Shown: positions 13,463-53,520 of the stretch, in pieces
How the letters are laid out: every line of letters begins with the position of its first letter
How positions within the stretch are numbered: position 1 is the first letter of the stretch
IMG/VR virus record: IMGVR_UViG_3300033518_000398
Span: 14,764 to 78,763 of that record
Strand: one strand, 5' to 3'
DNA from: a virus
Taxonomy: Duplodnaviria; Caudoviricetes
DNA length: 64,000 bases
Made by a program: the position numbers and the translations under genes
Notes under the pieces: model-generated
Database searches by the model: none
What the model was told of the DNA's origin: nothing
The model's input: only the letters and a program-made list of their open reading frames with translations

Positions 13463-15859
13463 TTATTTACCAACAGTTCCACCAAATTGTGTTTTACCTT
13501 GAGTTCCACCACCAGCAAAAGGACTTTTTATTGCATTATTTTTTATTGATTTAGGTGCGAATTGAATTCCATTTTTACCCACTCTCAATGTACCACCACC
13601 TTCTTCAACAAATTGTTTCAGCATTTCATATCTTTGTTGAATATTTGTTTCTTTTGCTGCATTAGCGATTGCACCCATTTGTGGGTTAATTAATATGTCT
13701 CGAAATGCTTTATAAAATAAACGATTTACTTCTTTTGGATTATTTGGGTCAAGTTTTGCAAACTTTTCCTTCATACTCCAGCCAAAAATTTCGTTTACTT
13801 TTTCTTCATTAATTATTTTTTTTACTGCAACTGACTCATATAATTTTAATTGTTTGTCAATTGCTGAGTCAAGTTTTTTAATCGCTTCTGATTTTTTACC
13901 TTCAGCTAATATTGGTTTTCCTATACCAACCTTTTCTTCAAGACGTGCACGAATATATTTTCTAAGTTTCTGTTCGCTTTCACTCATTGTGACATTAACA
14001 CTACCTTTAGTTACTTCAACAGTTGTGGTTGCAGCACCATCAGGTTTAGTTACTCCACCACCCAATGATTGAGCAGCAGGTGCAAAACTAATTTCTTCTG
14101 CGCCACTTTCTGTATCGTCACCAACTTCAACTTCTTCATCTTCTTCGGTTAATGGTGCTTCTACTTCAGTTTCATCACTTTCTGGTTCAATTGGAGGTTG
14201 TGTTTCAAGACTTGCTGGGTCGATTGGTGCATTTGTTGCATTTACTCCACCGAAAAGTTCATTAAGTTTAGCAATATTGTCTTCATCACTACTTTCATTC
14301 ATACCAGTAACAATCGGACTAAGCTTTTCAGCATATTCTTCATGTCCATAATCACCTTTTAATTGATTTAGAATTTCTGGATTAACTACTTTAATAACTA
14401 AAGCAACGTTTTCCATATCACCATCGTTCATACCATCATTATGTGCATTTGCATATCCACTAACTAAACTACTAACTTCTTCTTCACCACATTCCATAAG
14501 TGCTTCTGCACTATTATAACCACGTGATTCAGCAAATTGTGCAAAACCGCCACATTCAGCACACTGACTTTCACCAATTGCCGTTTCTTCACCACCTTTT
14601 GGTTTACCTGTGAAAAAATATACATCATCAATAGAGAAATGGTCTGGAAATGCTTTAGCAAGTTTCATTTTATTACTAGCATCTGCTTTCAAAAACAATT
14701 GAACTAAGCCAGTAGTAAACGAACCTTCACCTTGACGTTCACCATCATACCACTGCATAAACAATGACTTTCTACCACCTTCAACACCTTCGGCAGCCAT
14801 CTGCATATCAGATTTATTGGTATCCATTTTAATTGTTTTGGGTTCAATACCTGCAGCAGTTTCACTATCTTCAACGCTTTGTCCCAAATCTGCAATATCT
14901 TCGGGTGAAACAATTTTCGTGATTTTTTCTGCAATTTCTTTTCTATCTTCAATATCAAGTTCAGGAAGTTTATCCTTAAACGCTTGAATGAATGATTTAA
15001 GATATGATTCAGTTTGTGATGGTTCTAATTCAGTTTTTCTAATAGTATTTGTTATTTTACCAATTTGTTTTTCAAGTTCTCTTGTTGTTTCTGTTGCAGG
15101 GTCTTCAACCGCAACTTCTTCACCATCTTCTTCGGGCATTTCTTCTTCACCCTCTGGTGCTTCTTCACCATCTTCTTCATCACCTAATGATGCTTCTAAA
15201 TCAGCAGCAGCGTCATCTCCACCTTCTGGTGATTCTTCACCATCTTCTTCACCGCCTAATGATGCTTCTAAATCAGCAGCAGCGTCATCTCCACCTTCTG
15301 GTGCTGGTTCTTCTGCTGGCATTTCTTCACCACCTTCTGGTGCAGCATCTACTGGTTCTGATTCAAGACCAGCTTTCATTTCTTCACCACTTGGTTCTTG
15401 TGATGGCATTTCTTTAGCTGCAGTAGCAGCATCTAAATCACCTAACATGCTTTCAGCACTACCAATTTCTTGAGCAGCCTTATCTTCATTTAAGTTTATT
15501 TTTTTCTTACTACCATTTGGATTTACTTTTGTTACAACCGCTTCATTAATGGTTTTTAACAACATATTTCTGTTTTTATCTGCTTCAGCCAATTTACTGA
15601 ATTGATAATCAGTTATATTACCCAATCCACCAATATATGCGAAATCAGATGAATCTGGGTCAGATTTAAGACCACCTTTTTTAATGTAATAGTGGTGGTT
15701 TTCTTTAATGATACCATAAGCAACACCATCTGCTGCTCTCTTATAGTCAATTAAAGTACCCAATGTACGATTTTTTGATTCCTTAATAGAAACTTTATCA
15801 ACTTGTGCTAAGTTTTTTAGTCTTTGGAAATAAGCTTCTTGTGATGTATGTTTTGCCAT
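13463..15859 (-). CDS. Very acidic putative prohead core/scaffold or internal head protein
   Basis: 798 aa, Glu/Asp-rich, many (L/I)xE motifs typical of gp21-type protease substrates; late motif at about 15901. Confidence 0.7.
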   Translation of the reverse strand: MAKHTSQEAYFQRLKNLAQVDKVSIKESKNRTLGTLIDYKRAADGVAYGIIKENHHYYIKKGGLKSDPDSSDFAYIGGLGNITDYQFSKLAEADKNRNMLLKTINEAVVTKVNPNGSKKKINLNEDKAAQEIGSAESMLGDLDAATAAKEMPSQEPSGEEMKAGLESEPVDAAPEGGEEMPAEEPAPEGGDDAAADLEASLGGEEDGEESPEGGDDAAADLEASLGDEEDGEEAPEGEEEMPEEDGEEVAVEDPATETTRELEKQIGKITNTIRKTELEPSQTESYLKSFIQAFKDKLPELDIEDRKEIAEKITKIVSPEDIADLGQSVEDSETAAGIEPKTIKMDTNKSDMQMAAEGVEGGRKSLFMQWYDGERQGEGSFTTGLVQLFLKADASNKMKLAKAFPDHFSIDDVYFFTGKPKGGEETAIGESQCAECGGFAQFAESRGYNSAEALMECGEEEVSSLVSGYANAHNDGMNDGDMENVALVIKVVNPEILNQLKGDYGHEEYAEKLSPIVTGMNESSDEDNIAKLNELFGGVNATNAPIDPASLETQPPIEPESDETEVEAPLTEEDEEVEVGDDTESGAEEISFAPAAQSLGGGVTKPDGAATTTVEVTKGSVNVTMSESEQKLRKYIRARLEEKVGIGKPILAEGKKSEAIKKLDSAIDKQLKLYESVAVKKIINEEKVNEIFGWSMKEKFAKLDPNNPKEVNRLFYKAFRDILINPQMGAIANAAKETNIQQRYEMLKQFVEEGGGTLRVGKNGIQFAPKSIKNNAIKSPFAGGGTQGKTQFGGTVGK
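15183..15303 (-). repeat. 72-nt-period direct repeat (PEGGDDAAADLEASLG x2)
   Basis: cctaatgatgcttctaaatcagcagcagcgtcatctccaccttctggtg at 15183 and 15255. Confidence 0.85.
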
Positions 15860-24360: not shown

Positions 24361-24406
24361 TATTATTGCATTAAATTATATTTATTTATATATATTTGCA
24401 TAATAT

Positions 24407-30060: not shown

Positions 30061-30175
30061 TGTTGCTAACCACTCTATAGGAGAACGTGACTTACGGACA
30101 TTGAGTGATTAATGGTTTCAGTATGTAAGAAGCGCACACGATTTCCGCAACATTATTTTTGTTCATTGATATTAT

Positions 30176-48437: not shown

Positions 48438-48526
48438 GAATGATTAGAATTTCGTAGCATAGTGGTAATGCTGCCCGCAAGAAAGGGTGAAGATTGGTTC
48501 GAGTCCAATCAAAATTTTAATCATTC
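48438..48526 (+). ncRNA. tRNA-like element with about 17-bp extended acceptor stem and atypical anticodon loop
   Basis: D and T arms intact; loop GCAAGAAA; GAATGATTAGAATTTCG pairs with CAAAATTTTAATCATTC (one mismatch). Confidence 0.5.
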
Positions 48527-51599: not shown

Positions 51600-51631
51600 T
51601 GTTGGATATTAATTCCTTTTTTCTTACATTT

Positions 51632-51703
51632 GCCCTCATGATGTAATGGATAGCATACAATTCTTCTAAAATTGTCGTTCAGGTTCGAATCCTGATAAGG
51701 GTA
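51632..51703 (+). tRNA. tRNA-Arg(UCU)
   Basis: CAATT-CTTCTAA-AATTG. Confidence 0.85.
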
Positions 51704-52365: not shown

Positions 52366-52442
52366 GCACCTGTAGCATAATTGGATTAATGCACTTCGCT
52401 ACGAACGAAGAGATTTTGGGGGTTCGAATCCCTTCTGGCGTA
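52366..52442 (+). tRNA. tRNA-Arg(ACG), weak acceptor stem
   Basis: CTTCG-CTACGAA-CGAAG; two acceptor mismatches. Confidence 0.75.
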
Positions 52443-52455
52443 CTAAATTAAAAGT

Positions 52456-52692
52456 ATGAAAACAAAAATTTTGAAGAAAATTAACGAGAGAATCAGAATC
52501 ATGCCAAAAAATGATTCGTTTGTCGTTGAACACCGACCATTAGGTAGTAATGAATGGCGTGAACTTAATATCTTCTCTACACTTTCTGCAGCAATTAACA
52601 AAAAAAATAGTTATATTGTTATGGTAATTATGAGAGATTTGGGTTTTCGAAACGAATTTGTTAAAAGAAGAGTTAAAAGAAACGACAAATGA
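52456..52692 (+). CDS. Hypothetical protein
   Basis: 78 aa ORF. Confidence 0.6.
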   Translation: MKTKILKKINERIRIMPKNDSFVVEHRPLGSNEWRELNIFSTLSAAINKKNSYIVMVIMRDLGFRNEFVKRRVKRNDK

Positions 52693-52880
52693 TTCAAGCT
52701 TTATATGCAAATACTTGGGATGACTTAACTGTTAAGATGATTGGTTATTATCATGACCATTGTCATCATCATTATATTGGTAGTGCCGATGGTGTTCCAG
52801 AAAAATATAAAAAATTTAGAAAAAATGATGTAAAATACATTTTTATTTATGAAGAAGATACTCCAATGAAAAAGGTGTGA
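52689..52880 (+). CDS. Hypothetical protein
   Basis: 63 aa ORF with ATGA overlap. Confidence 0.55.
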   Translation: MIQALYANTWDDLTVKMIGYYHDHCHHHYIGSADGVPEKYKKFRKNDVKYIFIYEEDTPMKKV

Positions 52881-52908
52881 TTATATTTGTAGACCGTGTC
52901 ACACTATA

Positions 52909-53022
52909 AAAATAACACAGAGGATTCATCGCTGCAGCAATGCAGAGGAAGTTCAAGACTCAAGTGCTGAAAACGGGAGACTTTGGTCGAAAAATGGAAA
53001 AGAACGAATTTATGGTTATTTT
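52909..53022 (+). ncRNA. Candidate miniature RNase P-like RNA
   Basis: ATCGCTGCA-GCAA-TGCAG-AGGAAGTTC (P3 and CR-I-like), GAAAAATG (CR-IV-like), AAAGAAC-GAATTT-AT (CR-V-like), 8-bp closing stem; TATATTTG promoter at 52882. Confidence 0.5.
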
Positions 53023-53129
53023 ATAAAAAATGTTGCAGATTGAATTTAATTTAATAAATTTGTGTCATGGAAAACGCAATAAATTAACGTTATAGCCATA
53101 TTTTTCTGTATTTATAAAAAACGGAAATT

Positions 53130-53300
53130 ATGTGGGAATATAAAAGAACTGATATTAAATTCAAGTCATATTTAGAATTAATTGAGGTATTGAACGCTGA
53201 AGGTAAGGAAGGTTGGGAAGTTATTCACTATGACGAATCCGTACCTGAAAAGTTTGATAATAATTTCACTGCCAAAGCATTATATAAACGAAATAAATAG
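53130..53300 (+). CDS. Small DUF4177-like protein
   Basis: MWEYK...LNAEGKEGWEVI; GTATTTAT upstream. Confidence 0.6.
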   Translation: MWEYKRTDIKFKSYLELIEVLNAEGKEGWEVIHYDESVPEKFDNNFTAKALYKRNK

Positions 53301-53307
53301 AACCAGC

Positions 53308-53520
53308 ATGAGTACAATAAGAAAAGCCATTACAATCAGTGAAGATGATTGGGCAATAACACTACTTAAACCATTTTCTGGTCAATACCAAAACCATTTG
53401 TTTGTTCTTAATGAAGATGCTTATGGTGAAGTAATCATAACTGTTGAACAAATAGATGACCTTCGATTTAAATTAAGTCTAAGTGACGAAGAATTTCAAG
53501 AAATATTAAATAGCTTATAA
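53308..53520 (+). CDS. Hypothetical protein
   Basis: ORF track; start moved to MSTIRK. Confidence 0.55.
   Translation: MSTIRKAITISEDDWAITLLKPFSGQYQNHLFVLNEDAYGEVIITVEQIDDLRFKLSLSDEEFQEILNSL

Follow-up and report, generated by a model that had tools for sequence, protein, structure and literature searches.

A probable RNase P RNA pseudogene fused to the tail of a protein gene in a tRNA-rich phage

We analyzed an element at 52882–53022 of a 64,000-nt stretch of DNA from a tailed virus (hereafter the window; positions 14,764 to 78,763 of IMG/VR record IMGVR_UViG_3300033518_000398) and conclude that it is very probably a pseudogene, namely a decayed rnpB that a deletion fused to the final 19 codons of the neighboring gene. 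The two halves of the element are homologous to two different genes, they meet at a 6-nt TGGTCG, and the 3' half of the RNA gene is absent from the record. An earlier note, made from the sequence alone, had described the element as an RNA of about 115 nt resembling a minimal catalytic core of RNase P and had offered a reduced ribozyme, a decoy and a decayed rnpB as three options. The outcome is negative for the claim as made, because there is no 115-nt RNase P here, and it is the last of the three options that agrees with the origin of the halves.

Two gene fragments joined at TGGTCG

The IMG/VR record comprises 78,763 bases, with a CheckV completeness estimate of 23%, and the part of it covered by the window contains 22 tRNA genes and a tmRNA gene. 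Records of related phages are tRNA-rich and 300–365 kb in length, and the present virus is therefore a jumbo phage. The element is located in a 250-nt gap between a 63-aa open reading frame (ORF) ending at 52880 and a DUF4177-like ORF starting at 53130, with two tRNA-Arg genes approximately 440 nt upstream. As an IMG/VR query, the 63-aa ORF retrieved no relatives, Pfam assigned no family to the two small upstream ORFs, and a 'distant' BLASTN search of GenBank phages with 52400–53400 gave no match. RnpA (PF00825) is absent from the 78.7-kb record. Within the tRNA array, ARAGORN placed at 48447–48518 a tRNA of no assigned type whose anticodon, aaga, has four bases; it is not listed by the Rfam tRNA model at the gathering score and could be frameshift-suppressor-like or aberrant.

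All motifs on which the original interpretation was based are present in the sequence. These are a promoter-like TATATTTG (52882–52889, plus strand), a P1-like AAAATAAC/GTTATTTT (52909–52916/53016–53023), a P2-like TTCAT/ATGGA (52925–52929/52994–52998), P3 as CTGCA-GCAA-TGCAG (52932–52945), a CR-I-like GAGGAAGTTC (52945–52954), a P5-like AAGACTC/GAGACTT (52955–52961/52977–52983), a CR-IV-like GAAAAATG (52989–52996), a CR-V-like AAAGAAC (52999–53005), and GAATTT (53006–53011) as a P4-like 3' strand. The claim that these elements occur in RNase P order holds for P1, P2, P3, CR-I, and the 5' strand of P4, which are of RNase P origin, whereas the elements of the 3' half are codons.

The 5' half, at 52900–52989 on the plus strand, matches the profile of a family of phage-encoded, reduced type-A-like RNase P RNAs described below. 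An nhmmer profile built from 13 members of that family aligned with 52900–52987 (E = 3.8e-15), the sole match in the 78.7-kb record, and by this comparison the resemblance of the 5' part to RNase P RNA is above chance. The match spans model positions 10–106 of 280, such that the 5' 40% alone is homologous, and all invariant family columns within the fragment are kept. In order, the plus strand carries the P1 5' strand (52909–52916), the inner P1 GAG (52920–52922), the P2 5' strand UUCAUC (52925–52930), a complete P3 hairpin with a GCAA loop (52932–52945), J3/4 with the CR-I AGAGGAA (52944–52950), the P4 5' strand AG[U]UCAAGA (52950–52958), the P5 5' strand CUCA (52959–52962), a P7-like 5' strand AACGG (52972–52976), and a conserved GGAG (52976–52979). 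The CR-I region following P3 reads AGAGGAAGUUC at 52944–52954, is GAGGAAAGUCC-like, and is identical to the invariant family columns. What had been taken for a P5-like helix, AAGACTC/GAGACTT, consists of the 5' strands of P4 and P5 together with the conserved GGAG, and the P4 and P5 partners found in intact relatives are deleted here.

Thus truncated, the stump retains P3, CR-I, and the 5' strands of P1, P2, P4, P5, and P7, and none of their homologous partners. The P4 pseudoknot requires both homologous strands, of which the window has the 5' strand alone; a P4 can be drawn only by recruiting the Y-G-Y codons of the truncated protein gene. The conserved 3' motif of the family, AATTCTGGSTACGCTCA, is absent from the window even when 3 mismatches are allowed. 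J2/4 (ACAGAA; AACA..A in the family) is missing, and in its place the covariance model (CM) puts the AGAACGAAU of the coding tail, in which the invariant A is changed to G. Also missing from the element are the L15 GGU site, the P15–P17 module, and the S-domain (CR-II/III). Rfam RNase P models yielded no gathering-score match in the window and none at E ≤ 10 on 52780–53140, RF00010 had no match in the whole 78.7-kb record, and no second copy of an RNase P RNA was found in that record (~23% of the genome).

The 3' half belongs to a protein gene. On the plus strand, 52984–53043 encodes 19 codons (WSKNGKERIYGYFIKNVAD) and a TGA stop, corresponding to the C-terminus of a protein of ~150 aa, and this tail holds the motifs previously labeled "CR-IV" and "CR-V" along with the 3' strands attributed to P4, P2, and P1. 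The codons behind "CR-IV", "CR-V", "GAATTT", and "GTTATTTT" read K-N-G-K-E-R-I-Y-G-Y-F-I. The "CR-IV", "CR-V", and P4-like strand are hence coding sequence within 52984–53043, homologous to the C-terminus of the ~150-aa protein, and a complete minimal core of ~115 nt is not supported, its 3' motifs being part of the last 19 codons of the truncated neighbor.

The tail matches many members of the ~150-aa protein family at their very C-terminus, including P0087, in which SREGK-RCVYGYYVKNVAD is 63% identical over 19 aa. The family has more than 3,500 members and a conserved C-terminus ending in ...DCSREGKRCVYGY(Y/F)IKNVAD, and its gene follows the RNase P RNA, in the same orientation, in two distinct relatives (L015/L039 and L043/L072). 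In L015, the ORF that directly follows the RNase P RNA occupies 1257–1718 including the stop and encodes 153 aa ending in ...AVIDGVINDTHDCSRDGKRCVYGYYIKES. Pfam recognizes no domain in the ~150-aa protein or in any member of its family. Across the homologues of the L015 protein (>3,500, P0001–P0120 among them), which are ~140–160 aa long, the motifs GDC...H...DGV..D..DCSR.G.RCVYGY are conserved, and because of these motifs the sequences suggest a Cys/His enzyme. A bL12 (L7/L12)-like protein, recognized by eye (…LSKLTVLEAKEL.NILENDYGIKP…), is encoded shortly downstream of the RNase P RNA gene in relatives (L015, 1896–2276; L010, from ~1686; L004, from ~826).

The boundary between the two halves falls within TGGTCG (52984–52989, plus strand), where RNA-derived sequence extends to 52989 and ORF-derived sequence begins at 52984, so that the two overlap by a 6-nt microhomology; a conserved UCG is found at the corresponding point of the family RNA. 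Contigs from other public sequencing runs (X6 and X10) separate the two parts. An X6 contig follows the window over 52920–52989 and then continues with 81 letters unlike the window; the contig with an intact RNA in a close relative has a depth of only 2. Conversely, other contigs of X6 and X10 agree with the window from 52984 onward and are preceded by coding sequence unlike it, of which the last 30 letters before 52984, translated by hand, give IDGVIHDTED, where the protein family has AVIDGVINDTHD. Two further contigs, from the runs X4 (record 10, 612 nt) and X7 (record 26, 422 nt), cross the junction without any difference and were assembled independently, and the junction is therefore real DNA and not an assembly error. 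Among other variants, a 13.7-kb X4 contig comes from a co-occurring relative whose upstream ORF has ~88% identity; here that ORF and the RNA gene are separated by 807 additional bases (window 52871–52893). Its P3 differs after 52933, and X7 also includes a variant with another P3, so that several alleles of the locus coexist in the microbial mats.

The RNase P RNA family of related phages

Relatives of the locus were retrieved through a conserved 89-aa protein encoded 0.9 kb downstream of the element (16 loci), among which the 5' part of the element is conserved by both BLASTN and nhmmer, with 92% BLASTN identity over 63 nt in L013. In these relatives, the RNA extends another 150–200 nt past the part conserved in the element, and the P3 stem displays a compensatory change from CUGCA/UGCAG to CUGUA/UACAG. 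Further members were collected by an exact-word scan of IMG/VR with the 15-mer AGAGGATTCATCGCT followed by a filter for the downstream CR-I motif; 50 of the 68 matches to the 15-mer lacked the strict CR-I pattern, and most of these looked like chance occurrences and were dropped, whereas five with a variant CR-I (L020, L042, L048, L050, and L070) were retained after inspection. The resulting family comprises 13 intact distinct members of 190–300 nt and two more that are interrupted by ORFs.

The family has a uniform architecture. A variable P1 is followed by an invariant GAG...CUC, P2 (UUCAUC/GAUGAA), and a variable P3, often with a GNRA loop; the middle part consists of AGAGGAA, a P4 5' strand with a bulged U, P5, a P7-like long-range helix, and GCAA...AAACAG...GGGUU(G/A)G; and the 3' part contains UAGAUAAAUGAUGAA, AAACA(G/A)AA, the P4 3' strand, ACGCUC, and the P1 3' strand. 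A covariation test of 34 pairs in P1, P2, the P4 pseudoknot with its bulged U, P5, and the P7-like helix, with P4 written as a pseudoknot, found that 96.6% of cells pair and that 18 of the 34 pairs have compensatory changes. None of 500 shuffles equaled the family on any of five measures, and pairing was 36% to 43% when partner columns were slid by 1–3. The P15–P17 helices were left out of this formal count; they covary sequence by sequence, but their columns were misaligned by MAFFT.

Rfam models match members of the family over their full length, in all cases below the gathering score (100 bits for RF00010): RF00010 (RNaseP_bact_a) scored 43.5 bits on the record of L050 (E = 8e-14) and 48.7 bits on L005 (E = 9.4e-14), and RF00373 (RNaseP_arch) scored 26.7 bits on L015 (E = 8.9e-6). 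The layout and part of the sequence agree with bacterial class A RNase P RNA, apart from a specificity domain that is greatly reduced, and, as judged from these comparisons, the family is a genuine RNase P RNA of a reduced, type-A-like form. We found no paper in the literature describing phage-encoded RNase P RNA genes. A CM, R1, was built from nine members (261 positions, 28 pairs) and run on the window and six loci. Full-length copies scored 92–189 bits, with three members outside the training set at 174–189 bits, and the element scored 27.4 bits, 30 nt taking the place of 135 model positions. The checks proposed in the earlier note thus gave a divided answer: there is no Rfam CM match to the element, and the structure for which the relatives' covariation speaks is one that the window copy is unable to adopt.

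Some relatives have interrupted genes. In L005 (521–1520; also in L006, L007, L009, and L023), parts of RNase P RNA are nested. From the outside in, an 'outer' 5' part (P1, P2, P3, CR-I, and the P4 5' strand) is followed by an ORF of ~0.65 kb (MAKYYHKCSICNKRVKRKK...) that is mobile-endonuclease-like by eye, a complete 'inner' mini RNase P RNA with its own P1–P3 (1274–1479; the RF00010 match of 48.7 bits, E = 9.4e-14), and the outer 3' strands of P2, P4, and P1. This arrangement has the appearance of a mobile cassette within rnpB or of a partial duplication there; the nested locus had no group I intron match. In L013 (1740–2420; identical to L074), a GIY-YIG-like ORF, again recognized by eye (MKNKIYYVYQL...IFYIGKG...), lies between the P2 3' strand and J2/4, and P4 covaries despite this insertion (AGUUCAAC/GUUGACU). 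In L037, an additional hairpin of 41 nt occupies that position.

Upstream of the RNA, a stem GUGUGA...UCACAC encloses TATATTTG (52875–52904, plus strand). The corresponding GUGUGR-N(18-25)-YCACAC is located directly 5' of P1 in one subclade (window, L004, L005, L013, L026, and L070), with a loop carrying TTATACA and CTACCCC motifs. By inspection only, the pairs covary in this subclade, reading GUGUGA/UCACAC in the window and L013, GUGUGG/CCACAC in L004, L005, and L070, and GUGGC/GCCAC in L026, a compensatory change from G-C to A-U. The stem may be a promoter, leader, or processing element. TATATTTG fits the Bacteroidota-type −7 promoter consensus TAnnTTTG and is a possible promoter of the RNA remnant; it is not conserved at the corresponding spot in relatives, and a scan with sigma-70 promoter and terminator consensus sequences found nothing at the element. 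As a promoter signal in general, TAnnTTTG (TANNTTTG) was rejected, being not enriched in the window (84 occurrences against 114 expected). The motif occurs at 30154–30161, 24391–24398, and 51625–51632, 0–15 nt before the tmRNA gene (30176) and two tRNA genes; for the copies at 30154 and 24391 the distance is 9–15 nt. Although the motif is not enriched overall, this placement is suggestive of promoters of the Bacteroidota type and thereby of a Bacteroidota host.

Origin of the element and alternative readings

We propose that an ancestor of this jumbo phage had a reduced (~200–300 nt) type-A-like RNase P RNA gene beside its tRNA genes, followed by the ~150-aa gene, and that ~0.6–1.1 kb, a size estimated from the layout in relatives, was deleted between two copies of TGGTCG; the shared hexamer at the boundary is a signature of deletion between short repeats. 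Such an event would have removed the 3' two thirds of the RNA gene (~150 nt), ~130 codons from the start of the downstream gene, and the spacer between them, where L043 has a small ORF. Left behind would be 90 nt from the 5' half of the RNA, attached to the 19 codons of the protein tail. The lost parts of the RNA would include the 3' strands of P7, P5, P2, P4, and P1, P15–P17 with the GGU site for the tRNA CCA end, and J2/4 ACAGAA. We infer the direction of the event, that is, deletion from an intact ancestor, as well as the loss of function and the present state of transcription of the stump. The deletion looks recent, because relatives at ~96% identity still carry longer forms, and a recent deletion would explain why the invariant positions of the 5' stump are intact. 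The fused remnant would be unable to form the P4 pseudoknot or the other long-range helices of the family and therefore should not cleave pre-tRNA; judging from its sequence, it is almost certainly non-functional. For its 22 or more tRNAs, the phage would then depend on the RNase P of its host or on a copy in the unsampled 77% of the genome.

The intact invariant positions fit a recent deletion, but they also fit continued constraint, and the stump might have been kept for another job, as a decoy for host RnpA, a leader or regulatory RNA arising from the retained upstream region, or a piece of a split RNase P RNA with its counterpart in the unsampled part of the genome. We consider this quite improbable. 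The upstream stem and the promoter-like motif are retained, L005-type relatives have an 'outer' 5' part ~0.7 kb apart from the rest of the RNA, and the record covers just 23% of the genome; however, no 3' piece occurs in the 78.7 kb, and intactness is what a recent deletion predicts, given the longer RNA in relatives at ~96% identity. Taken together, the chance that the 90-nt stump is transcribed and functional, be it as an RnpA-binding decoy, as one half of a split RNase P, or as a ~120-nt P1–P4 mini-ribozyme helped by fortuitous complementarity of the tail, appears slight.

It is very unlikely that the tail supplies the 3' strands of a working minimal ribozyme in which a P1–P2–P3–P4 core would cleave phage pre-tRNAs, perhaps together with host RnpA. 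A P1-like AAAAUAAC/GUUAUUUU, a P2-like UUCAU/AUGGA, and a P4-like pairing can all be drawn, and R1 can place UUAUGGUU, from the Y-G-Y codons, as a P4 3' strand that forms 7 of 8 pairs and retains the bulged U, because of which a P1/P2/P3/P4-like mini-fold is thinkable. Adding the tail also produces a gain in minimum free energy (MFE) that is borderline unusual compared with shuffled tails (p = 0.026). Yet shuffled tails form a duplex with the 5' part as well as the real tail does (p = 0.19), and the fold of the element as a whole is not unusually stable and not above chance (MFE −26.1 kcal/mol, z = −1.06, with 31 of 200 shuffles folding as well; the minus strand folds more poorly than the plus strand). 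The P4-like and P1-like 3' strands share GGUU and are mutually exclusive, the invariant J2/4 AACA..A is altered, and the L15 GGU site, P5, P7, and P15–P17 are gone. Rfam has no RNase P match here at E ≤ 10. The 3' strands are conserved in relatives as protein codons and not as RNA, and a second phage with the short architecture was found neither in IMG/VR nor in JGI metagenomes: the pattern AGAGGATTCATCGCT-N(4-34)-GAGGAAGTTCAAGAC had 0 occurrences in JGI metagenome contigs, and back-translated tail patterns had 0 in IMG/VR and 0 in metagenome contigs. Given that the P4 3' strand and the P1-like one overlap, that J2/4 departs from its consensus, and that relatives carry this tail as plain coding sequence, we read the complementarity between tail and stump and the threading of UUAUGGUU as probable coincidence.

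That reads of the RNA gene and of the downstream gene were wrongly joined at TGGTCG during assembly is so improbable as to be nearly negligible, for even though the junction coincides with a short repeat and the same habitats harbor related strains in which the arrangement is intact, the independently assembled X4 and X7 contigs cross it without differences and six bases are far too short to mislead an assembler.

Relation to known RNase P RNAs and meaning for the phage group

The intact relatives resemble bacterial class A RNase P RNA (E. coli M1 RNA/rnpB; RF00010) in the order P1-P2-P3, in a CR-I of the form GAGGAA(A/G)(G/U/C)UC, in the P4 pseudoknot with its bulged U, in J2/4 ACAGAA, and in UAGAUAAAUGA, which we take to match the UAGAUGAAUGA of E. 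coli. As in class A, a GGGU(U/A) loop adjoins a short, P15/L15-like helix that, by inspection, appears to covary. The relatives differ from class A in their length of 190–300 nt, in a drastically cut S-domain, and in scores of 43–49 bits against a gathering score of 100, whereas the window copy keeps 5' strands, P3, and CR-I and has neither the 3' half nor an Rfam match.

RNase P RNAs reduced by nature or by design include the type T of Pyrobaculum, the yeast mitochondrial Rpm1, and the C-domain-only and 'Micro P' constructs, in which the S-domain and much of the periphery are dispensable, and such RNAs made the idea of a minimal ribozyme reasonable. To our knowledge, all of them keep both P4 strands and the CR-I/CR-V core. 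In contrast to each, the window element has no homologous P4 3' strand and no CR-V. Its closer likeness is to the remnants that microhomology-mediated (illegitimate) deletions leave in phage genomes, with two unrelated genes joined at 6 nt and the intervening DNA lost; compared with these, there is nothing unusual about it, and the interest lies solely in which gene was lost.

For motif-based calls, the element is a caution, since a chain of "RNase P-like" motifs in AT-rich phage DNA here combined a real 5' fragment with chance matches in coding sequence. The comparison indicates that a group of jumbo phages, with tRNA-rich records of up to ~365 kb, carries its own slimmed-down RNase P RNA. 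A lineage of this group can apparently lose the phage rnpB, which would make it an accessory rather than an essential gene. The event itself is ordinary, and its moderate interest is as evidence that phage rnpB genes exist and can be lost.
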